Both the position numbers and the translations under genes were made by a program. A stretch of DNA of 64,000 bases, taken from contig CDLV01000011.1 in NCBI GenBank assembly GCA_001244265.2, positions 992,001 through 1,056,000 of the forward strand, read 5' to 3'. Shown here piece by piece: positions 21,501 through 62,826 of this stretch. Numbering within the stretch: position 1 is the first letter of the stretch; each line of letters starts with the position of its first letter. Under the pieces are notes generated by a model that saw only the letters and a list, made by a program, of their open reading frames with translations, was not told the origin of the DNA and did not search any database. This DNA comes from Microbotryum violaceum (lineage: Eukaryota).

Positions 21501-24400
21501 GCTTTCGGACATGCTGGCTTCCATATCGGCAGATGGCGCGGCAACAGAAGGTGTCATTCAGCGTGAAGTCGCCGCAATCTTCGAGCGCAAGTCGTCGAAC
21601 CAACAGGCAGCCTGGAAGATCCCACCACCCTCTTTGTCGTCATCTGTTTTCTCCCCGTGGAGATCTCATCGGTTTGGATCGGAACCACCCCAACTGCTAT
21701 GGGTCGCGACCCAAAGCATGTTGGCAAGAATCTCCTCAACTCTTCCAATTCCGGAGGGCGGGCCATTATTGGAGGAACCGGCTGCGTCGGGCATCAAGAC
21801 TTCTTGACGCTCATCAGGGTCGAAGATTCGAGTCGAAAGATACTATACAACCGTGACGCGGAGACCCGTGATCGACAAGACGACAACGCCGCTCACAGAG
21901 CCTTCTCAGCTGCTACTCTCGAACTGGCTGCGGACGAGTGCAACGCCGGCAATCTGGACCAAGATGCAGTCGTCTTCCTTTTCCTCTGTGGAGAGCTACA
22001 TGACGCCATACAGAACCGCTCTTTACAGCCACTAGAAAGGGTGAAGAGGCTCCTCACCGTTTGCTATGCATTTGAAGGGTGGTCCAAGTTCGTCAGAGTC
22101 TTCCCCGAGTACTCTGGTGATCATTTCCTCAGCGCAGCGACTCTGGACGGCGTCTACAAGGTGGTCAATTGCTGCATCGCACTCATTCGCAACTATCGCG
22201 ATTATTGGCCATCCGAAGTTTTTCTACCCTGGCGCCATGGCACGGAGATGGTCGAGCACTTTTTCGGCAGCCTACGGAAGATTGTCCCGGAATTTGACGC
22301 CCTAGATTTTCTTCAAGTGAGGGGACGCGCTCTGAGCTGATCATTCTTTTGTTGTGAGATGAGATCTAATCTCCATAGGCTATTCTACTGTGCAGGCAGC
22401 ATCCAAAATTTCGCTGCTCATGGACTTCTCGCTTCAAGTGAATGCCTCGCAAACAGACAGCTCAACTGGATACCATCACACGTATGACGACACAACCGCA
22501 ATCAATCTTTCGGCTCTTGGCTCGTATCCTTCGGATACACAGATCATACAAGCGAGCCAAGAAGCCGTGCGACTAGCTCGTGATCTACTCGAAGCGACAA
22601 AGATGTGGCCAAACTTGGTCGAGGCTGGAGCGCGCCCACCGAATCAATTTCAAGAGGACATCATGGTAGATGAAGGTGAGAGTGAAACTGTCGCCTGCCA
22701 AGTCTCTTCCTATATCACTGTAGTAAATGACACACAGCCTATCATATATCAGATGCGCATGATTTATTAGTCGACGACCCCAGTCCGGCGGAGCTCGTCG
22801 ATTGTGCACTGGATCAAATTCGAAACGGAGCTACCAGTGATAGGGTCACCCTTCAATTGGAGGAACAGGCTGCAGTTGAAAGCGCAATCTGCGCATTGAC
22901 AGCTCTTGACATTGACGTTGAGGATATGCTGTGAGCTGACAGTCAAGAGTCTTTCTAAATTCAACTTTGAAGCTGATTGAACGACTGACCTTTCTTCAGG
23001 GACTCAATTCAGACTCATTATGACCAAGCTCGCCAGCAACAAGCAGAGGCGGAGGAGGGGAACAAGGTGCAGGAAGAACTCAACCAGCACTATGCTGAGT
23101 TCCAACCTGCGGGCTTGCACGAAAAAGCCAAGGTAAATTATTAACGGGTGTCGGTGGTCACTGCATGGTCGATTTCGGGGACTGAGATTATTGTTCTCAT
23201 TGCCCACTATCTTCAGGTCGATATGCTACCTTTAGGTGGTCTAGCACAACGAAGCCAGCGCGGAGCCGAGTTATTGCTCAATCACCTCAAGGCTCATCGG
23301 AATGCTCACCAATGCGACCATCTTAAAGCCATTTTACGAAAAGGTCGGCAATCCGCCGCAATATCATCCACAGCTTCTGACTCCAACGGATCGAATCAAT
23401 CGCCTCAAGGATCACATGCTGCTGTTCATTCGGCTATTTTGCGCGGTCTGCTTGAATCCAGGAACGATGAGCGATGGCAAAAACTCACGGGAATGTCTCG
23501 GAATGTCCGTTGGACCGGGGGTGGAACGGCCGGTCGAGAGATGACCGAACACGAAGTCGAAACAAGGCAAAACACGCAGGACGCAAGATCGCATGTATGC
23601 AGAATTTTGGAGAAAATCACCTGCTTTTTTCTGAATTAACATCTTGCTGCGATGTTGAATAGAAAGGGATAGGAGCTCGGGCCGTTCGCTACCGACAGCT
23701 CGACCAGCAACATCCACACCTCGGCGCAAGCAATGGCTCCGTATCGGCCAAGAATCCATTGAAGATCGGCTCCTTAGTTGTCTTTGGACTACATCACACA
23801 CAAAGCTGTGATGAACTTCCCAATCGCAACAGCCGCGGCCAAGTTCGAATCTTCTTCTTGAATGGTCACCGGGTCGTCAGCTGCCTTGACACCTACAACT
23901 CGAGCATGCAGACCGTTGAGCCCCTAGCTGGTTTTGGCTTCGACGGCCACACTTGGCGAGTCCTGGCATAGCAAAAAACGGGGGTATTTCGGGTATGGCT
24001 TTGGGAGTGCGCGCTCTGCCGAGACGATCCCGGCGCCATCCCAGCACCATCCAGGCGCTCGGCGCTCAAATCTAGGACGATCCTGGATGGTCCCAAGAGG
24101 GCGAGCGCGTGCCGGGATGGTGCTGGGATGGCGCCGGGATCGTCTCGGCAGAGTGCGCACTCCCAAAGCCATACCCGAAATACCCCCGTTTTTTTGCTAT
24201 GGGACCCACAGGCGCAAGCGCGATATTGCCAGCTGCAAAGCTTCAAAGAGGTCCTTGCAGCGTTCATGGCCCCGATTCGGAAGGGACTTGCGCATGCTGG
24301 CGAGGAGAGGGGCAATGCAGCCGGAGGGAGCGGAGCCGATAAGGTGTCGGGACCTTCGCAGGGTCCAAGTGGCCGGCTGTCAAAGCGGACGCGACGTTAG
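18598..24400 (+). pseudogene. Decayed multi-exon transposase gene: Ulp1/C48 peptidase, Zn finger and P-element/THAP9-like DDE domain
   Basis: RHWV..NSL..PQQLDGDSCG (19290-19490); CxxC..H..C (~20065-20145); MDDTK (21128), SADG (21532), DPKHVGKN (21708), EHFFGSLR (22254); frameshifts near 19380, 19560 and 21655; 5' limit approximate. Confidence 0.75.
23967..24201. mobile_element. MITE with ~85-bp TIRs, CA..TG ends and 2-bp TSD (GG)
   Basis: catagcaaaaaacggggg.../...cccccgtttttttgctatg; removing it and one GG restores the frame WRVL|DPQAQARY. Confidence 0.9.
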
Positions 24401-25813: not shown

Positions 25814-27885
25814 CATCAGCAACTTTGCCACTTTGCTAAATGGCACTAAATAAATCTCGAGCCGCTAAACCGATAAAGTGCGCAAAATGGCACAAAATGG
25901 CACAAAATGGCACTCAGATTGGCACTGTTTGATGAACTTAGCAAAGTTTGATGAAGTTGACACTTAAAATTTGGAGGAGTGCTGTGGTGAGGTGTAACAA
26001 TGTCAAGACCTTGGTTGCTATTTTTCCTATTACCAACTCTAGGTATCAGTATACCAAGTATTCGACCTGCAATAGATACATAAAGACATGATTTGCTCTC
26101 GACACATGTTTGCAGTATTGCAAAATATTCTCCTACCAGAACTGAAGCTATACTGATGATTCAATTGAGCACTCATGACAGGGGCTATTCTGACAGATCC
26201 ATTTGCGCCGCCCTCCCTTTCCCCTTCCCGCGACTCTGAGGCGTTCTCGGATCACGTAGAATTTTGATGCTAAATACCCTCCCAAAGCGATCACAAGTTA
26301 CAGTCAACTGGTTGTTCCAGATGTCCACAACATTCTGGATATTCCATGCTCGTGCGATCTCCATTTCTCAAAATAGCACCTGCCCAAGATCCGATCGTAA
26401 AACATCCTCAACCGAGTGTCGTAGATTGCAGTAGTCGCTGTGCGGCGACGTAAGAAGGAAATGCGCCTCTTGCGCCTACGGACAGAGTGGGACTTAGACA
26501 AAATCTGGGAGCAAGGCGCGAGTCGCCGCGCGCGGCGCGCCGACTCAACTGGCGCGAACCGGGCCTTCGCCAAGACGTGTGCGCAAGCGCCGTCACGGCC
26601 AAGTGACTCGCATTAGCAGATTAGGCCACGGCTGCGTGTTGTTTACCAAGTCCACGCGCCGTCGCGAGCCTCCTTTTCCTTCCTCCCACTCACTGCCACC
26701 GCTCGCGATCCCCATCCCTTGTTCCCTCTTGCCTCCACCATTACCTTTCAATCTGCCCCGGCTATTTCCGAGTGAGTTGACCGTATGGCACAGTTATTGA
26801 AAGGTATGGCTGAAGCGTTACAAGCCGCCGGCAAAGACACCGCCAGCGACCGGCGGGACCAATGCGCGGTCAACCGAACACGAAGCAGACTGAGGCGCAC
26901 GTCACATCTTGGCAACGCTGACCATCTTCGGAGGGGTTCCTGGAACTTCGCTGTGGCCACACTTTTAGGGTGATCTTGAAGAGGTTATACTGTTGTCCAG
27001 AGCAGGAAATGGCTAATAAGTATTTGCATTACTGCAGAGAGATTTCCAGTTCGGCCGGAAGTCAGGCGACCTGTCTAAACACTGTTGAACGATCTCGTCG
27101 CCGTGTTCGCAGCTTGCGCCAAGAGCCAAAAGGTGGCCTCTCTCAATGCGGCGCAGCTGGACAACCAACCCCTGGCTTTTGGTCTAGTATCTTATGCTTA
27201 AGGTGCGGTGAGTCGAGATATTTTCCGCGGATATCGTTTTCATCCCTGTAACATTCGACCTAAAGTTAGTCTACTGGTCCCATCAATAGGCGCGTGTGTC
27301 TCTTGAAAAGATGATGCCCCCAATTGCGGAGTTCTCAGGTGAGTCTCAATCACCAGTTGTTGCGACATACTGTTTCCCCAGGGGGGGGGGGGGGAGGGGT
27401 TATGCTTCCGTTTTCAGGTGGCGAAGCAGTGGCCAAAGACTCGCTCGAGGCAGGCCTGGCACTTAGGCACAGGGCACAGTTGGTGCCGAATGATACGTAA
27501 GAAGAGGACTCAGAATAGATTGTTTGGCTGGCAGTAGCCTAGTACTTAGCACTGTGATTATGAGTGGAATGCAAGCATGTACCAGTACTACCAGGCATCG
27601 ATCGCTCAAGCGCGCTTATACACATAATAGCACTGAAATCAGGTTGTTGTTGCAAAAGCACTATAAGTGCACTAAATGGCACGGAAGCCACTAAATGGTA
27701 CAAAGTGCACTAAATGGCACAAAGTGCACTTAAGTGCACTTAACTTAAGTGCCTTTTAAGTGTCATTTAGTGACCCACCGGAGATTATAGAAAGTGCACT
27801 AAATTTCACTAAAAGCGCTTTTGGCACTAAAGTGCGCTAAATTTCACTAAATTTCACTAAAGCGCGAGTGGCAAAGTTGCTGATG
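25814..27885. mobile_element. 2.07-kb non-autonomous CACTA/CMC-like DNA transposon
   Basis: Perfect 19-bp TIR CATCAGCAACTTTGCCACT; 2-bp TSD TG; dense subterminal AAATGGCAC/AAAGTGCACT repeats at both ends. Confidence 0.9.
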
Positions 27886-28450: not shown

Positions 28451-28600
28451 ATGTGGTACCAAAGTCGCCATGAACGTGGTACAAGAATGACCTCGGGTGT
28501 GATCCCAAAGTCCGCTCCGATGTGATCCCAAAGTCGCCTCCGATGTGGGACCAGAGTCGCCTCCGATGTGGGACCAGAGTTGCCATCCTCGGGACCAAAG
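28451..28600. repeat. Degenerate ~23-bp minisatellite
   Basis: gatgtgggaccagagtcgcctcc-like units, about 5-6 copies. Confidence 0.7.
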
Positions 28601-42900: not shown

Positions 42901-45900
42901 CTCTTATTCGGGACGCAGCTACTCTGAAGTTCACCTTGGCACGAGTGCGCGGTGCCCGAGCCTGGTTAGCTGCAGTCCGAGTGCTTTTGCTGCGAATTGC
43001 CGGCTCCGGGAACGGCGTGTTCGCTTGGATGGTCATTTCGATTTACGAAGATTGTCCAAGTCCTGTCCAACGAAATCGTATCCGGACTTTAGTCTCTGGC
43101 AGCGACGCTATCCTCAAAGTCCTTGCACGCAGCGAAGAGCCCGAACATCTCTCGGGTGAGTCCGCTGCCGAGACTTCCCTTGCTCATGCCGTTGAGAGCT
43201 GATACTGGGGTCGCCCCCCTCCCTCAGCGATGCTTCACCTTGTCCGTGTTCTTTTCTCTCCGAGCAATCGCAATGGTCGGCGCGCCGCAATGCCATATTG
43301 CCAGCTCATCCTCAGCAATGATGAAGCGAAATTGTCTCCCGGGGTGAGTATGTGCAACTACCCCGGACTTTGTATTGTGAGAGAACCCTTGCTGATGCAC
43401 AAGAGACCTTATTTCCACAAAAGTTGTTACTCACAAGTGGCCCATTAATGCCGTTCTTTGGTCAATCATCCCTGCTCCGCTTGACCGTGTCACTGCTACG
43501 TCATGTAGTCAACGATACGCTGTCGATGGATCAATGGACGCGTGCAACATTGGATGCTGCTTTGCATCAATGTAGTTTCGTACCTTCAGTGGCCGTCGTG
43601 AACGAATTGTGGGTTCAACACTTCGCAACATTGTGCTCGTTGGCACAGCTCTCCCATCCTGTCAAAGGATGCGAAGCCGTCTTGCTGCACGGTGCTGGCT
43701 TCTTCTCCAGTGACCGCAACAAAGCTTCCCAGATCAAGTCATTACTCGATCGTCATGCGGTCGACTGGACAGGAAACCTGCTGGCCACACTGGCCACAAA
43801 TCGCTCGTTCATGATCGTCCTGGTGCAATTGGTCTCTCGCTCCGAACCAGCGCGCGCGCTCTTCGAATCCTTCGTTGCCACGCAGAAACGCCTCGACCTA
43901 GCGTATGCTGCTCCCCTGAGCTCCATGGTCAGCACGCCCATCAAAGGGCCAGGTGTGGCCGACGCGTTGCGCAAGCTCATTGTCGAATGGACGAAGCACC
44001 TGGTCGCCGCCAACAACTCAACCCCGACAACAATAGATGAGGCTGCGTTCTTGGTGGGGACATACGCAGTACAAAGTCCCAACCTGACCCAATTGGTGGT
44101 CTTGATAGTGGAAGGTGCTCTACCACAATCTACAGACCAAGTTTTCAGTCATCGTCCAGTTCGGTTCCTTTCGCAACTTGCACAGCACATGCCAGCAGCG
44201 CAATCAGTGCTTGGTGATTGGGTCAACAATTCGTTCGAGGGGATCATTCGGTACACTATGGAACACAAAGACGACAAGGGTCACATCTGTGATTTGGTCA
44301 GCGAATTGGGTGAGTGCCCATGAACAACAGGTTTGCAGGTACTGTGCTAATCATGCGTGTTGGGGCACAGTGCGGACGCTCAAGTTGCATCGTACTATTG
44401 TCTGCAAGCAACATCTCTTCGATCCGCTCCTCACGGCGATCATCCACCGTCGACAGGATCAGAGCGACTACAGCGTGCTTGCAGCAATGCTTTGCAGCTT
44501 GAGTGACTGGAAGGTAGGCAAGCAGTGACCATCCAGGCACATTTGCTATTTTGGACATTGACATCGTTGGGAGTGTCTCTTTCTGCAGGATCAAGATGTT
44601 GCTCGCCATCTGAATGCACTGTTGGCAACTCCTGCTTTCCGATCGCAATCACATCACCGTGCAAGCGAGTCGAGTATTCGGCTCATTGCCGCGCTTGCCC
44701 GCGCTTCATGGACTGCCGCCGTATCTTGCCGACTTGTTGACCGACTCATGCCAATCTATGGGGCGACCACATCGGCCCAAGACGTGGTCATCCTTGAGAT
44801 CTTCCAACGACTCGAGCTGGAACACGCAGGATCAATCAATGCAGCATCAAGGAGCTGGTCGCCAGACACTGGCAATCGAATGTTGGACAAGAATCGCTGC
44901 GCGAGCCTGCACCATCTTGACCCACGCCTGATGCGCAACGCCTGGCTACAAGCATGCGGTTCAGCTCTTCCACATACCAGCGGGGTGGTGAATTTTCCCG
45001 CGTACGACCCAGGCTTTCTACTGCCTTTTGTCTCCCACACAATGGCGGAAGATGAACTCAAGGCCGCAGATTGGACAAACCTACTTGAATCTGGAGCCCT
45101 TGGTATTCCAATTGCTGCGCTTGCATCTCCTTCACCAAATATGCGTCAACTCGCTTCGTCTACGCTTCAAGCTGCACTGAGCAAGTCGCGGGCTTCCGTA
45201 TTTCCAGAAAGGGATGAGCTTGCCCTGGTGTTGCACATGTCGCGCCAGTGCATCTACCGAGTCAACGGCGAACCCGTCCCAGCTGTCATCTCTCTCTTCT
45301 TGTGCTGTTGTGTCCTTGCTCTAGGCACACCGGCTTCAACGCTTTATCCGGCTTTTATGCAATTCCTCTTGCAGCGCTCTCAAGTCGACCAACACGATGT
45401 ACCAATGTTTTATGCTACACTCTACTCGTCAAGTGCACTGCCCGAGGAAGAACGCAAATGGCTGGTCCTTTTTCTAGGTCACGGGCTTATGCGGGCACAG
45501 GTGAGTCTTGGTGTGATCATGCTGCACAAATTCATTTATGCTATGGTCTTTGCTGATCTGTCTTTTCCCATGACAAAAGGACTGGAGAATTCTGCGCCGA
45601 CGCCAGAGCTTTGAGCTCCTTGTCAGTCTGTTTGAATCAGCTCAGCATGATTCTTTCCTCAGACTGCACATCCTTCAGGTAGGCTGTTTGCTAGAGATGT
45701 CTGCAAGGAGATCGCGGGGGAAGATGACTGACTTGGCACATTTGACGCATATGCAGTTCTTCTTGTCTGGAGCCAAGATACCAAAAGTTGCCCGGGAACT
45801 TGTCAGACGCAATGGTTTGCTCTTTTGGATCACCACTGTTCCCTTAGTAGACAAGGAGGAACACTATTTGGCACTACAAATTCTGGGGAAACTCAATCTA

Positions 45901-45930: not shown

Positions 45931-46603
45931 CCACCTTTTCTAGTGACTCTAAAATTTCGAAGTGATTGTGGAGACTGCTTAATACATTTAATCAAATGTC
46001 CCATCTTTTTCATTGTCTGCAGCAATTTATCCAGGCATCCATCCATACATAATGCCGCGAGCAAATGGTGCAATTAATAATTACGGGGGCGCGTTTACCC
46101 CGAAGCTTGACCCATCTACCCCGGCAGAAACGTTTTTATTTTATTTGATAGACTTCATTAACAGCATAATTATATTATTACCTAGAAATCTTCGGAAAAG
46201 TCGGAGGGAATGCTGTTACGCACACTGGCAGAAGCCAGTAGTGTAGGACTCATTGACCCTGAACCAGGATCAACCATACCCACTAAAACCCCCTTTGGTG
46301 TCTTACAGAGACACTAGGCGACCCTTGGACTCCTGGATAGAGGCTCGAAGTGCAAAGTTCATTTACAAGTGGTGCATTATTCGCGCAAGTTTGGTGCGTT
46401 TGCTTCGGAAGAAAGGTGCGTTTACCAATTAAGGATGGTGCAGCTACCACGTAGCTGGGCAATCCGCTGTATCTCGTGTAGTATGCCATGTATCACCCTG
46501 AAACTTGACGAACCCTCCTACCGAATCACCAAGTACGTCCACCTTGAGTAAGAAGCACTCTCACCAGGACCTCATGTAGTTGGAAGTCGTGCCTGCACCC
46601 CCG

Positions 46604-46804
46604 TGTAAGGCGCCGCTCCGCTTACGCCTCACGACGACCTCGAGCCGACCTCTGCGGCCTCACGCTTGCCCTCGCGCGCGGCGCCGCCGCGTCTCTTGAC
46701 CTTAGTCCTTTTAGTAGTCTTTCTTCGCCTGCGAATTACACCGTTTGATCCTTTCAGTTTGGACTCGGAACCAGTGAGGCTCGAGAGCAATCTCGTGCCT
46801 TTCA
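46604..46804 (+). mobile_element. Solo LTR (Ty3/gypsy-type), 201 bp
   Basis: TG...CA ends, 5-bp TSD CCCCG; homologous to the minus-strand LTR at 49378-49559. Confidence 0.9.
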
Positions 46805-49377: not shown

Positions 49378-50650
49378 CACGAGATTGCTCTCGAGCCTCA
49401 CTGGTTCCGAGTCCAAACAGAAAGGATCAAACGGTGTAATTCGCAGGCAAAGAAAGACTACTAAAAGGACTAAGGTCAAGAGGCGCCCGTGGCGCCGCGC
49501 GCAAGTAAGGCTTCGGCCGCTGAGGTTGTTGTGAGGCGTAAGCGGAGCGGTGCCTTACACTCACCCCTCCTTGAATCAATTCCCTTATCCGGGTTCTGAC
49601 GCAAACAATCGTTCGTCGTCGTCTTCTGAATCGCTTGAGATGCCTACAAAGGCGGTTGAATCACCGGTGTCCTCGTGCACTCGGATTGCGGCTACCATTC
49701 GAGGCCCGGGGGTAGATCCGGGGGGATCGCGACGAGGGGATGCAGTGTTGGGCTTGGAAGGGCAGTTTGAAGAGATGTGGCCTACCGTGTCGCATACGAA
49801 ACAGCGGCCTTCGAACATTGCCTTCTCCTTTGCTGCACCTTCCAACCTTGGTGTGCAAGGCCCCACAGCCTGAGTTGGTTCACCGCGTTCGTGATGTAAG
49901 TTGAGCCTCCGCATGCCTGTTGTTGCTTGCTCCAAGGTGATAGCGTCCCACATTGTCTGGAGATATGCCACAAGTGCATTAACGGAAAACTTGCCAAGCG
50001 CAAACAAGGGGGAGGCGGTCGCGCGGAGATACAGGAGCTCGTCGCATCGGTGGAGCAGTTGGCGCTTGAACAGTTCATCAGGGATGACTTGGGTGCCGTC
50101 GGAGGCCAATCCAGCTTGGCTGCGCTCTTGCGTCAATAGTGCAATGAATTCGTTGAACGTCCCGCTCTGTTGCGCGTTGAAAAAGGCGTGCTCCGCCGCC
50201 AAGCCGGTCTTCTCGCTGACGAATCGCGCCTTCACTTCCGCTGCAAAGTCGTCCCACGTTTTGAGCGCCTTCAACTTGTCGCGAGAATCAATGTACCAGT
50301 CCCCTCCTTCCCCTCCATCCGGCTGCCGGCCTCACGAATGAGGTGTACGGTCGCAATCTTGCCGTAGTTCCATTCGGCCGATTCGACCGCATCTTCGCAC
50401 CCTGCCAGCCAGCGCGCCACGTCCCTCGACTTGGAACCGCCTTCAACAACGGCATATCGAGCTTGACTCTTCATGCCGGGGTCTCCATGTGCAGGGGTGT
50501 ATCGCGGGAGTCGGGTGGCATTCTCCTGTTCTGTTCCGGTTCGATTCTGGGTTCTGTGGCGGGCACGGTGCTCGAGGCCGTGTTGCGGGGCTGGGCGGAG
50601 CGGGGCTGGGCGGGGGCAGGGGCCGGGGGGGTTCTGGGTTCTGGTTCTGG
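49378..50650 (-). mobile_element. Ty3/gypsy-like gag-only element with PPT and 3' LTR (49378-49559)
   Basis: TWDDFAAEVKARF and knuckle CFVCDTVGHISSNC; stop at 49585; PPT aaggaggggtgag then TGTAAGG; frameshift at ~50290. Confidence 0.8.
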
Positions 50651-53296
50651 TGTGATGAGTCCACTCTCAGCTCGGCAGAGGCGCCTCGGTCGTTACGCGA
50701 GCCCGCTAGCCCGCCCCCAGCGCTGGGGACTTAGACGCGCGCGACTGACTCAGCGCGCCAGCGCCGGGTGGATCCGTGCGCGTGCCCGCTAGGCCGCCCT
50801 CTGCGGTGGGGACTTAGACGCGCGCGACTGTCTTAGCGCGCTAGCAATTTCACCCGCGACTGGGCCTATCTCAGCGCGGGCCTCCTGTCTGTTCTTAGCT
50901 TCCTCCTCATCACTTCTGTTCGACTATCAACCCCTCCTGACAGTAGTGGTGATCGTCTTATAGGTACGCTGAAACTCATCACTTCTGTTCGACTATCAAC
51001 CCCTCCTGACAGTAGTGGTGATCGTCTTATAGGTTTTGAGCCCAACGAGCAACCAACTGCTCCTTGAGGGATTTTTCGAGCTCAACCACTCGCACCACAC
51101 ACGTCCCTCGCAGCATGGACAGCCCTCCCGCCGCACCCTCGCCGCCCAGGGATTCCAGCTCCCCTGAGCCCTCATTCAGCGCGCAAATCGCCACTCTCCA
51201 GGCGCAACTCGCCGCTCTGCAGGCCTCGCAGCCCCTAGCCGCTGCCGCTCCCACGCCCCCGGCCGTTGCAGCCACACCGGTCCACGCCACCACCGCATCC
51301 AAAGTCGTGTTTCCCAAACACGCTCGCCTTGACGGACCCAAATCTTTTACAAATTGGTTGCGTCAACTCCGTCTGACGCTCCCGAACCAGCTTCGGAGCT
51401 ACGTCCTCGACGGTGTCATCCCCGCTACCTGGACGGCCGAGCAGCTGCCCGCCCGTGACAACGCTGCCGCGAGATCATCGTTGGCTCTATTGACTCAGCC
51501 GACGTCTCGGCGGCCCTCGACGCCATCCCCAGCGACCAGCTGTCAGCTCCTCGCATTTTTGCGACTCTCAAGGCTTGTTTCGCACCGGACGATGCCACGC
51601 GCACCCTCGAACTCTTCGCCCGTCTTTGGGATTTCAAGAAGATGCCCGCTTCCGTCGAGGCATACGACACTTGGCTCCGCGAGTACATGTCGGTTGCACA
51701 AGAGATCCGTGATGCCAAAACGTCGCTCAACGACGTCCTCGCCACCCACGTCCTCACCATGGTTCCGTCCTGCCTCGACAGCTTCCGCCTGACCTTCACG
51801 GACGAGCAGCGAAGCCAACGCGAACTTCCCGAACTCACGGCGCTCACAGACCGCATCCGCATCCAACTTCGCTCGGCAGGACTTTCCACCTCGCCTTTGG
51901 CCATGCTCGCCACGCCATCGCTTTGTCCAGCCTGCCACGCCCCTGGTCACCGCCTTCGCAACTGCAAGTCGCGAGCCAAGCACCCCCCACTGGTCCTTGC
52001 CGCCGATGCCACAAAAAAGGCCACTGGGCCCTCGACTGCAAGCACCAAGGGGAGCAGAAGACCACCAGCGACAGCAACCACGACGACTCGGTCTCAACTG
52101 CGTCTCAACAGCCTAACATCGGCTATTTCGCCTCCTGCCTGTTTGCTCGCCGCCACCTCCCTGATGACGCCTTTGTGGTTGATTCGGGCGCCACGGCACA
52201 CATGGTTGCTGATCGGTCTCTGTTCACCACGTACCGCCGCACGGCGCAAACCAAAATAGGCGGCATTGCAGGCGGCATCACGGCCATTGGCATCGGTGAC
52301 GTGGCCTTCGTTGCCAAGTCCGGACATCCGATCACGCTGCATGGCGTCCTTCATACGCCTGGTCTCGCCGTCAACCTTCTATCCGTCTCTCGCCTCTGGG
52401 ACACCGACCGTGTTCGACTCGCCTTCACCAACGAAGGCATCGACATTGCAAAGGACGGTCAGGCCATTGCTCAAGGTCACAGGGTCGACGAGGGTCTCTA
52501 CCTCCTGGACGCGGATCACTCGAAATGTCAGCATCTTGCCTTACTCTCGCGTTCTGAGTCCACCGTGCCCCTGCTTACCCTCCATCGCTGCCTCGGCCAT
52601 CTCGCTCCATCCTCTATGCAGAAGATGATTGCCGCTGGTTTGTTGGACGGGTTTGGGGTCGGATATAGTGACAAAGACATAGAGCAGTTTGTTTGCAATG
52701 CTTGCCTTGGTTCCAAAGACCATCGCCTCCCTTTCCCTGACTCGGATTCGCATTCCTCCGAGAGACTCGGCCTCGTACACAGCGACATCCTGTCGTTTCC
52801 GACTCCGTCTTTGACCGGCAAGCGCTACCTTGTCACGTTACTCGACGACCACTCTCGCAAACTCTGGGCATACGCGATTGACCACAAAAGCGACGTCTTT
52901 CCAACCTTCAAGACTTGGCTCGCCGAGGTAGAATTGGAGACAAACGCACGCTTGAAGATCCTCCGCTCCGACAACGGTGGGGAGTATCGCTCCACCGCCT
53001 TCACGGAGTTCTGCAAGTCCAGGGGAATTCGCCGCCAGTACTCTATACCGTACACACCTCAACAAAATGGTCGCGCCGAACGTGTCAACCTTTCCATCGT
53101 CGAAGGTGTCCTCGCTCTCCTCGCCGATTCTCGTTTGCCCGCCACCTTTTGGGATGAGGCGGCCGCGTACTTTGTTTATTGCAAAAACAGGTGCTCACAC
53201 TCCGCTTTAGCCAAACAGACTCCAGAATCTGCTTGGAACGGCCAACGCACCACCGCCACCGCCCTCCACCCGTTCGGCTGCGCCACCTGGCTCACA
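50651..53296 (+). mobile_element. Ty1/copia element E1: 5' LTR 50651-51031, PBS, frameshifted gag-PR-integrase, truncated
   Basis: PBS ggttttgagccca; CCHC knuckles; [33 protein letters not shown]. Confidence 0.93.
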
Positions 53297-57694
<4,398 letters not shown>

Positions 57695-59567: not shown

Positions 59568-60943
59568 TGTGAAGAGTCCACTCTCAGCTCGACAGAGGCG
59601 CCTGAGTTGTTGCGCGCACCCGCTAGCCCGCCCCCTTGCGGTGGGGACTTAGGCGCGCGCGACTGCCTCAGCGAGCAGGCGCCAGCGGACTTGGGCGCGC
59701 GCCCGCTAGGCCGCCCCCTTGAGGTGGCGACTTAGACGCGCGCAGCTGCCTCAGCGCCCTAGCAAGTTCACCCGCGGCTGGGCCTATCCCAGTGCGGGCC
59801 CCCTTTCTGTTTCTTAGCTTCCCTCTCACCACTTCTGTTCGACAATCAACCTCTCCTGACAGTAGTGGTGATCGTCTCATAGGTTATTCGCCATCGACCT
59901 ACCGCTGGCATGGACACGTCGTCGCCCTAACGACAGGTGCCCACCCAACAATCCCCGCCGAACAGCTCGCCGCACTTACGTCGCTGCTGTCGGGTCTCAC
60001 CACTGCCACATCCGCCACGTCGTCCGGCACCTCTCGCACCGCCTTTCCCAAGCACGCACGCTTGGATGGGCCCAAGACGTTTGCGAGCTGGACACGCCAG
60101 CTTCGCCTCTGCCTTGCGGACGACATCCGCTCATACGTCCTCGACGGGATCGTGCCCGCCGACTGGACACCTTCGCACCGCTCTGCCCGCGATGTCGTGG
60201 CACGTGAGCTCCTAGCGAATTCGATCGACTCAGCCGACGTCTCGGCAGTCCTTGACCAAATCCCTACCGCCGACCTCACAGCGCCCAAAATCTATTCGAC
60301 GCTGAAATCGCGGTATGCTCCGGATGACGCCACTCGCACGCTCGAGCTCTTCTCACGACTATGGAGTTTCCGGCCCATGCCCGGCACCGTTGGCGAATTC
60401 GACGGTTGGATCATGGAGTTCAAAGCCATTGCGCAAGAAATCATCGATACGAAGACGACTATCAATGATGTTCTTGCCACACTCCTCCTCGCCATTGCAC
60501 ACCCGTGCCTCGAGAGCTTCAAGGCGTCATTCACCGACGAACAGCGCACCCAACGATCTCTCCCTGCCATTGATTCGCTCGCCGACCGCATGCGTGTTCA
60601 ACTCCGGTCCACCAACGTCCCCAGCACCCAATCGGCCCTTCTTGCCTCGTCGTCGTCACGTCCTACCCGTCCCAAGTGTCTCGCCTGTTGCAGCCCTTTG
60701 CACCGTGTGGCGGAGTGCCCTGTGAGAGCGAAACACCCGCCGCCAGGACCCTGTCGCTCCTGCAAGCAGAATCACTGGTCTTTCGACTGCAAAAAGGCTC
60801 TCGAGAACGGCAAAAAGGCCAACACGGCGAACTCGACCGCCAACTCGCAACACCATGTCGGATGTCTCGCTACCGGCCTTCTCGCTCATCGTCGCCAGCT
60901 TTGCGCCAACTCCTTCGTCATTGACTCAGGCGCCACTTCGCAC
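59568..60943 (+). mobile_element. Ty1/copia element E4: 5' LTR 59568-59881 and gag up to the protease motif
   Basis: Near-identical to the E2 5' part; cut after IDSGATSH. Confidence 0.93.
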
Positions 60944-61346
60944 TATTCGATCAACTCTACTACGTCAGCGATGTAGTTATAGCCAAGAGTGATGAATCAT
61001 TACAACATACCTATTCGATCAACTCTACTACGTCAGCAATGTAGTTATAGCCAAGAGTGATGAATAGGAAGCTAACAACAAGAGAGCGCGCGCCTCACAT
61101 CCTCAGGCTGCGAACCTTGGGGCTGAGCCAATGGCCCAGGCTCGCCCTGCGCGCCTAAGTCCTGGGGCTGTGTGCGCCTGGCTCGCTCCGCGCGCCTAAG
61201 TCCTGAGCCAATGCGCCTGGCTTGTTCTGCGCGCCTAAGTCCTGGGCCGGTGCGCCAGGCGAGCGCGCGCCTAAGTCCTGGGCCGGTGCGCCAGGCTCGC
61301 TCTGTGCGCCTAAGTCCTGAGCCGAGCGGAGAGTGGATTCCTCACA
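60944..61346 (-). mobile_element. LTR of the E3 family with duplicated terminal segment
   Basis: tgtgaggaatcc...gatcgaata; gcgcctaagtcctg tandem repeats; no matching TSD. Confidence 0.88.
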
Positions 61347-61369: not shown

Positions 61370-62826
61370 CTGCCCCGCACTCCCGGCCGCCCCGCCACGC
61401 AGACCAACGCCGCTACCTCAGCCAAAGTCGTGTTTCCCAAACACGCTCGCTTCGACGGTCCCAAATCGTTCACCAACTGGTTGCGTCAACTCCGTCTTGC
61501 ACTCCCGAATCAAGTCCGTGCTTACGTCCTCGAAGGTGTCGTTCCCGCTACTTGGACGGCCGATCAGCTTGCCGCCCGGGAACTCATCGTTGGCTCTATT
61601 GACTCCGCGGACGTCTCGGCCACGCTCGACGCCATTCCCAGTGACGATCTCTCAGCACCGCGCATCTTCACCGCTCTCAAGGCTCGCTTTGCACCGGACG
61701 ATGCTACCCGCACCCTCGAGTTGTTCGCCCGCCTTTGGGATTTCAGGAAGATGCCTGCCTCCGTCGAGGCATACAACACCTGGCTGCGCGAGTACATGTC
61801 CATCGTACAAGAAATTCGCGACGCCAAAACTTCGCTCAACGATGTACTCGCCACTCACGTGCTTGCCATGGTCCCATCGTGCCTCGACAGCTTCCGACTC
61901 ACGTTCACGGACGAGCAACGCAACCAACGCGACCTTCCCGAGCTGACAACGCTGACCGACCGCATTCGCGTCCAACTTCGTTCGGCGGGACTCTCCACCT
62001 CGCACTCGGCCATGCTCGCTACCGCCTCCCCATGCCCCGCCTGCCGCGCCCCCGGTCACCGCCTTCGTGACTGCACCTCACGCGCTCAACACCCCCCACC
62101 GGCCCCTGCCGTCGCTGCCACAAGAAGGGTCATTGGGCCCTCGACTGCAAACCGCGAGGCGACCAAAAACGAACCGGCGACGACAACCAGGACAACACAC
62201 CCTCATCGGTGGCTCAACAACCGAATGTCGGCTATTTCGCCTCCTGCCTGCTCGCTCGCCGCCATCTCCCGACCGACGCCTTCGTCGTCAACTCGGGCGC
62301 CACGACACACATGGTCGCCGATCGCTCGCTGTTCACGACTTATCGTCAGACGGCGCACACCAGGGTCGGCGGTATCGCAGGAGGCATCACGGCCATTGGC
62401 ATGGGGGACGTGGCGTTCATTACCAAGACCGGACACCCGATCACGTTGCGTGGCGTTCTTCACACGCCTGGCCTTCACGTCAACCTTCTCTCTGTCTCTC
62501 GCCTCTGCGACACCGACCGCGTTCGACTCGCCTTCACCAGCGACGGGATCGACATTGCCAAGGACGGCCAGGCCATCGCTCACGGGACTCGCGTCAACGA
62601 CGGTCTCTACCTTTTGGATGCGGACCACACCCAATGTCAGCAGCTTGCCTTGCTCTCACGTTCTGAGTCTCCCGTGCCCCTGCTTACCCTTCACCGCTGC
62701 CTCGGCCATCTTGCCCCATCCTCCATACAAAAGATGATTGCTGCAGGTTTGCTGGACGGTTTCGGGGCCGGGTACAGTGACAAAGACGTAGACGAGTTTG
62801 TTTGCAATGCTTGCCTTGGTTCCAAA
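61370..62826 (+). mobile_element. Ty1/copia gag-protease fragment E5 (E1-like)
   Basis: [45 protein letters not shown]. Confidence 0.9.

Follow-up and report, generated by a model that had tools for sequence, protein, structure and literature searches.

A candidate spliceosomal intron at the end of a Ty1/copia LTR in Microbotryum violaceum, possibly rebuilt by reverse transcription from a copy of its leader exon

Reverse transcription of spliced RNA is how textbooks explain the loss of introns, and retrotransposition reporter assays rely on it. An intron placed between the transcription start site and the primer binding site (PBS) of an LTR element therefore poses a puzzle, because one round of reverse transcription should erase it. 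Introns engineered into the Ty1/copia element Tto1 are lost from its cDNA, and the strong-stop cDNA of this element moves to a homologous stretch near the 3' end of the RNA (PMC3061985, in the portion cited here). Penelope-like elements carry a short spliceosomal 5'-UTR intron in their terminal repeat (pLTR), beside the start site, which survives retrotransposition and whose significance its authors call unknown; these elements belong to another order of retroelements, with GIY-YIG and no tRNA primer, and the available text of that report describes no copy of the leader exon (PMC8557442). In HIV-2, an optional leader intron lies upstream of the PBS and its splicing boosts translation, and, by the sections cited, the spliced RNA is excluded from particles, leaving nothing to rebuild, and no exon copy is present (PMC3315320). 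A maize preprint of 2026, which claims the first evidence of spliced transcripts inside LTRs, reports introns of 1303 bp on average in LTR-contained non-coding RNA and, in its available part, describes neither a retention mechanism nor an exon duplication (PMC13192763). Introners are whole mobile elements that become host-gene introns upon insertion (PMC12130899, as excerpted), and in Cryptococcus introns raise mRNA levels (PMC3744415, likewise in part). The literature search, in which older and subscription papers are poorly covered, found no description of an LTR intron that contains a copy of its upstream exon.

The window analysed here is a 64,000-nt stretch of Microbotryum violaceum (contig CDLV01000011.1, positions 992,001 to 1,056,000) from a genome of 33 Mb in 20 contigs, and its part from 46 to 64 kb is a nest of LTR elements. 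On the minus strand at 61346-60944 lies a lone LTR of 403 nt, running from TG to TA, which belongs to a Ty1/copia type that we call type B and is present in a duplicated form. Its order is U3, X1, donor spacer and X2. X1 (61065-61011) is the putative first exon, a leader reaching from the supposed start site, which we infer from the X2 junction, to the donor. The 13-nt spacer (61010-60998) starts with the donor GTATGT and contains TGTAA, a candidate poly(A) element, and X2 (60997-60943) is a copy of X1 that would lie within the intron and bring its branch point and acceptor. The two copies differ at 1 of 55 bases (54/55 identical); when the 500-nt region was shuffled 300 times, no exact repeat longer than 11 nt arose at a spacing of 40-100 nt. 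The intron-shaped unit spans 68 nt, from the GTATGT at 61010, preceded by G, to a TAG ending at 60943, with a CTGAC branch-point motif at 60968-60964 whose branch A stands 22 nt before the acceptor end. The original prediction of a duplicated LTR end with a 68-nt intron shape on the minus strand is therefore confirmed.

Two other parts of that prediction did not survive. The final G at 60943 had been read as PBS-derived, and it is here the first base of target DNA, namely the pol gene of a neighbouring element, in an LTR that has no PBS. Type B had also been taken as a second type independent of E1, a type-A 5' LTR in the same nest. The X sequences of the two align with 39 of 62 columns matching (P=0.0005, 2000 shuffles) and the LTR starts are alike, so they are diverged sisters. 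The flanks of the LTR at 61346-60944 do not form a target-site duplication (TSD), and a twin with identical flanks lies at G000:C1:1134280-1134679. The pattern of its 5' flank has matches at three places, and a search for a partner LTR carrying the expected 3' flank found none; with its mismatched flanks, the LTR is probably a recombinant of two insertions.

The element itself is an ordinary copia. In the type-B element at G000:C1:985567-980187, zf-CCHC, Pol_BBD, gag_pre-integrs and rve are followed by RVT_2 (E=7.6e-52), in broken frames, and we assign the family to Ty1/copia because integrase precedes the RVT_2 reverse transcriptase and a 5-nt TSD is present in a full-length relative. The order Gag-protease-integrase-RT, the PBS, the polypurine tract and the 5-nt TSD are all shared with Tto1 (PMC3061985, in part). 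A 5-nt TSD bounds three of the eight type-B pairs listed, a poly-G tract precedes the 3' LTRs, and the termini of types A and B end in TA rather than CA. TG..TA is a non-canonical LTR motif and alone no bar to copia. Immediately 3' of the 5' LTRs stands a GGTTAT-type motif, with 237 matches in the genome against 2 in reversed controls, a candidate PBS that may pair with an internal stretch of initiator tRNA-Met (used as a half-tRNA primer); the host initiator tRNA was searched for and not found. The intron-shaped units carry U2-type signals, with a GT donor and a CTRAC-type branch in 40/40 copies each, a TA+G acceptor and a length of 67-69 nt. A Penelope-like element is rejected on account of the RVT_2 and rve integrase found in place of a telomerase-like RT with GIY-YIG nuclease, and the short intron near the start site makes for a functional analogy only. 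An introner is rejected since the 68-nt intron is an internal part of the LTR at a constant position. Introns are reportedly also born by tandem duplication across AGGT (the Rogers model), and here too the 3' part of the intron repeats the upstream exon. However, such a duplication is a one-off DNA event, head-to-tail and free of added sequence, after which the copies diverge, whereas here a unique 13-nt spacer separates copies that covary and stay 98.9% alike in type B, about 99%, while the families diverge, so this class is rejected as well.

Copies across the genome were compared in a sample of 181 loci (717 kb including overlaps) picked by similarity or pattern, which is no census. Among the 68 type-B LTR ends catalogued, 43 are duplicated, 24 single and one complex; removal of one chimeric copy and collapsing of two copies with shared flanks reduced the duplicated set to 40, and the same filtering took type A from 43 to 39. 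The expected constancy of the splice signals holds, with donor GTATGT and branch CTGAC each in 40/40 independent type-B LTRs and no variation, and type A has donor GTA(T/C)GC and CTGAC in 39/39. The terminus is TA in 39/40 and 38/39 copies of types B and A, respectively. As had also been predicted, 5' LTRs are followed by G: all 28 type-B ends that precede a PBS-like motif are followed by GG, and the PBS therefore completes the TAG acceptor there. Type-B units are 67-69 nt long, with a spacer that is invariant at the donor (40/40) and variable at its opposite end, and duplicated ends are found on 5', 3' and solo LTRs alike. Within the window, E1 (50651-51043, plus strand) is a duplicated type-A 5' LTR whose 69-nt GTACGC..CTGAC..TA/G unit at 50964-51032 is closed by the first G of its PBS. 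Two further type-A 5' LTRs on the plus strand (53297-53611 and 59568-59881) are single and followed by a PBS, and the LTR at 61346-60944 sits in the pol of the latter.

The single form had been interpreted as spliced-like, and this part of the original prediction is weakened. A solo type-A LTR in duplicated form (56987-57366, plus strand, 5-nt TSD) has a single-form twin at G000:C9:1195543, and in neither is the next base a G; furthermore, the two LTRs are of unlike form in four of seven TSD-bounded elements. Single forms thus arise without splicing at non-G flanks and are rejected as proof of splicing. Together with the discordant pairs, they imply that deletion or recombination is active among these LTRs, a process that also homogenises repeats. 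Near-identical dispersed families with single-form or repeat-less LTRs are present in the genome, which shows that some lineages can do without the intron. Two TSD-bounded type-B elements (G000:C2:1038758/1033903 and G000:C7:1722766/1717555) have the same two unlike LTR variants in swapped positions, as if both LTRs derived from different templates.

X1 and X2 evolve in concert. In type B they differ by 0.57 bases per LTR, against 1.51 in shuffled pairs, and in type A by 0.49 against 3.91 (P<=0.0001 in both). At two non-CpG subfamily sites X1 equals X2 in 40/40 type-B copies, and most of the mismatches fall at CpG positions; repeats in the U3 of the same LTRs are only 87-89% alike over 54 nt. 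Concerted evolution alone is not decisive, because recombination between tandem copies could produce the same pattern. At the left edge of X2, the 6 nt preceding it occur as eight haplotypes in type B and those to the left of X1 as two; type A shows a smaller difference (7 vs 4). The base before ATCAC in type-B X2 has changed from C to G in 5/40 copies and from C to A in 1/40, compared with 0/40 in X1, and the change to G before a second A recurs on two spacer backgrounds. The length of the type-B spacer (units of 67, 68 or 69 nt) varies only at this edge, mostly by an added G; as a point against the model, X1 of single-form type-B LTRs bears no scar. Extra G at strand-transfer junctions fits cap copying or untemplated addition, and the hypervariable edge resembles a strand-transfer scar.

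We put at roughly 70% the probability that the LTR end is a spliceosomal intron which is spliced and then rebuilt by reverse transcription at strand transfer, a mechanism whose steps are modelled on standard LTR replication (strand transfer as in Tto1; PMC3061985, in the portion cited). The transcription start would coincide with the left boundary of X1, and splicing of the 5' intron from the genomic RNA would join X1 to an intact PBS. The copy in the 3' LTR would be kept unspliced, either because its acceptor lacks the G or because the RNA is cut and polyadenylated within X2. Strong-stop minus cDNA of the spliced leader would then jump to X2 at the 3' end of the RNA. Unlike that of Tto1, the LTR here holds this homologous stretch in two copies with the donor between them, so that such a jump could restore the intron. 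The new LTR would consist of U3, X1 and spacer from the 3' end plus a fresh X2 from the spliced leader, X2 being recopied from X1 in each cycle and the intron thereby retained. Single forms would come from a jump onto X1 or from deletion between X1 and X2, and triples from a partly spliced or unspliced template. The model would therefore entail co-evolution of X1 and X2, a junction at the edge of X2, an X2 copied from spliced RNA and a working acceptor. Its weakest step is the purpose: a cap-proximal intron may increase the amount of RNA in a fungus rich in introns, and the spacer may hold a poly(A) element of which splicing strips the 5' copy only.

Nine LTR types of the genome share the exon-copy layout. 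Types C, D, E, F, G and J have their acceptor within the LTR itself, so that an acceptor completed by the PBS, as originally proposed, stands for the 5' LTRs of types A and B and is rejected as a general rule. The type-C 3' LTR of the window (63240-62827, minus strand) has X1 at 63045-62983, an internal acceptor and a 16-nt tail, and holds two putative introns, I1 (62982-62915, 68 nt) and a second one of 72 nt composed of spacer and X2 (62914-62843). The two abut at 62915-62914 around a zero-length exon (CAG/GTGTGT) reminiscent of a recursive splice site. Among 82 non-redundant type-C LTRs, 39 have the exact junction that lacks I1, on at least eight spacer variants, against 0/82 with the reciprocal loss, for which the microhomology is comparable (11 vs 13 nt). 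Of the triples in this type, 20 gain a short unit and one gains a long unit, with two more holding both; long-unit repeats are present in three of the non-redundant LTRs. A partly spliced template explains the type-C pattern, with counts that inheritance and recombination inflate. TGNAA occurs in 9/9 own-genome spacers (shuffle mean 2.1, P=5e-5), for a motif picked post hoc and with two spacers over-long in the test, and is absent from subfamily C3 and from two metagenomic loci described below, L126 and L228; it is a candidate poly(A) element, which splicing would strip from the 5' end. At L400:1450-1580, a fold-back junction links an inverted PBS region to a type-E spacer and X.

Metagenome contigs were scanned by motif, a search that selects for splice motifs, and gave at least 123 matches, in 27 clusters among those listed, with only one end-anchored copy of at least 25 nt among the 123, which counts against the model. 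L228 is a single locus of 679 nt from another organism. A 65-nt GT..CTAAC..AG intron interrupts its X1, and a second intron follows, whose tail (X2) equals exon 1 plus exon 2 at 54/55 bases. The ends of the first intron have only AG in common, and DNA slippage is therefore not readily the source of this X2, which we read from its sequence as a copy of spliced RNA. Judged by relatives, L228 is a copia, as the copia gag family PF14223 occurs in two of three relatives of the ORF downstream. Weak similarity to X persists in I1 of type C and in the first intron of L228 (P about 0.03 for each). In another metagenome, L126 repeats the A/B layout; its copy is exact over 38 nt and followed by G, and it has a weak copia gag match and AATAAA in its spacer; type C and L126 end in CA or TA. 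As a control, chance PBS-like sites in phage contigs had a donor and branch in 0/90 cases, with a longest repeat of 13 nt.

The alternative that fares best keeps the intron real and has it retained by ordinary means: spliced RNA would serve as messenger only, the unspliced RNA would be packaged, and X1 and X2 would be homogenised by copy gain and loss through template switching or unequal recombination. Single forms, triples and discordant LTR pairs are indeed common, and in HIV-2 the RNA with a spliced leader is kept out of particles (PMC3315320, in part). At least 85 of the metagenome matches, moreover, belong to a high-copy family from one metagenome (L113 and 84 others) with a 48-51-nt GTAAGT..GCTGAC..CA/G segment at the PBS and no exon copy. 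This copyless intron shape is left unexplained by our model, and if the segment is an intron it must persist in another way, for example by packaging of unspliced RNA as in HIV-2. Nevertheless, we consider ordinary retention unlikely, since it fails on the exact spliced copy in L228, where the ends of the first intron share only 2 nt, and predicts neither the hypervariable left edge of X2 beside a constant X1 flank nor the 20 long-short triples against one long-long triple in type C. In the L113 family the segment stops at a GGTTATGAGCCC motif, downstream of a TATA-like box. Loci L125, L190, L184 and L214 have gag-like ORFs and a donor-branch-AG arrangement that stops at the PBS without duplication, the gag being confirmed by Pfam for L125 and L190; in L168 and L224, a donor motif goes with an incomplete copy (10-16 nt) and an inverted repeat upstream. 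Pfam recognised no gag in the ORFs of L228, L168, L184, L214, L193, L224 and six members of the L113 family.

Splice-shaped skips were seen in run X11. The runs, none of the 14 being on record as RNA, were compared as assembled contigs only, in which a 54-nt repeat is beyond phasing. One X11 contig has an 84-nt skip at 57777-57694 on the minus strand, whose 3' border consists of the type-B TA plus the flanking G at 57694. It sits at a single-form type-B 3' LTR (57918-57695, minus strand) that holds one X only and is preceded by a poly-G polypurine tract. The donor, other than GTATGT, lies in U3 and reads GC in the window and GT in a twin at G000:C9:1195215, whose differences fit the contig better. 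A 77-nt skip at 62687-62611 (minus strand, GTAAGC..CTGAC..AAG), antisense to a copia pol gene and present in run X11 only, is canonical and marks this run as apparently spliced RNA; spliced antisense transcripts apparently cross the element nest at 62611-62687. Neither joint is among those listed for runs X1 and X3 (run labels, distinct from the leader exon) and the deep run X8, or in the 569 kb of genomic DNA compared, and there was no poly(A) loose end among the 24 listed of 245. The 84-nt skip supports the idea that TA plus a following G can serve as an acceptor, in one X11 contig and with a donor and an LTR form that differ from those of the proposed intron.

Another reading does without any intron: a slip of the reverse transcriptase would have copied the LTR terminus a second time along with the first bases of the PBS, GGTTATG having decayed to GGTATG, and the splice motifs would be incidental. 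Duplications of the LTR end that extend through the PBS and about 10-25 bases past it do occur (L244 and L395), the spacers of types A and B start one base off the PBS motif, and the junction from GTATGT to the PBS is inferred rather than direct. We regard this reading as improbable, given that types C, D, F, G and H, L126 and L228 have other donors (between them GTGAGC, GTGTGT, GTTAGC, GTCAGT, GTTAGT and GTAGGA), that several acceptors lie inside the LTR, that the donor is invariant in 40/40 copies while the far end of the spacer varies, and that the X11 skip ends at the type-B acceptor. Such a slip may still have been the birth route of the A/B intron, and the PBS-including duplications suggest that the A/B donor may have originated from the start of the PBS. 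The least probable account, and a very unlikely one, gives the duplicated stretch a structural role or one in termination (as a second R region or a poly(A) cassette) and makes splicing a by-product of read-through. TGNAA in 9/9 spacers tested, the AATAAA of L126 and a sole RNA-level joint stemming from read-through at a single-form 3' LTR would fit it, but the motif was picked post hoc, and the conserved donors and the spliced X2 of L228 are left unexplained.

If splicing followed by rebuilding is true, an LTR that is spliced and yet regains its intron in each cycle would be an exception to textbook intron loss with a simple mechanism. It would show the life of retroelements in fungi, such as Cryptococcus, whose mRNAs need introns to accumulate (PMC3744415), make start sites and strand-transfer points readable from plain DNA, and offer a testable model for intron retention in Penelope-like elements, which share the short intron near the start site (PMC8557442, as available); introns within LTRs are likewise shared with maize (PMC13192763, in part). 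A bolder version is possible, though we lean against it: an old trick of fungal copia elements, in which one or two leader introns are spliced and rebuilt at the first strand transfer, the intron carries a poly(A) element so that splicing silences polyadenylation at the 5' LTR while the 3' LTR keeps it, and older introns that are no longer refreshed diverge in front, which would make LTRs a recurrent source of new introns.

Elsewhere in the window, 46603-46797 and 49378-49560 form an inverted pair of another LTR-like repeat, 85% alike. A host gene with introns, whose relatives have Pfam PF16201, adjoins the repeat nest at 43325-45614, and the regions 23967-24201, 25872-27820 and 28451-28580 contain, between them, a nearly perfect inverted repeat of 89 nt and short tandem arrays rich in AT.
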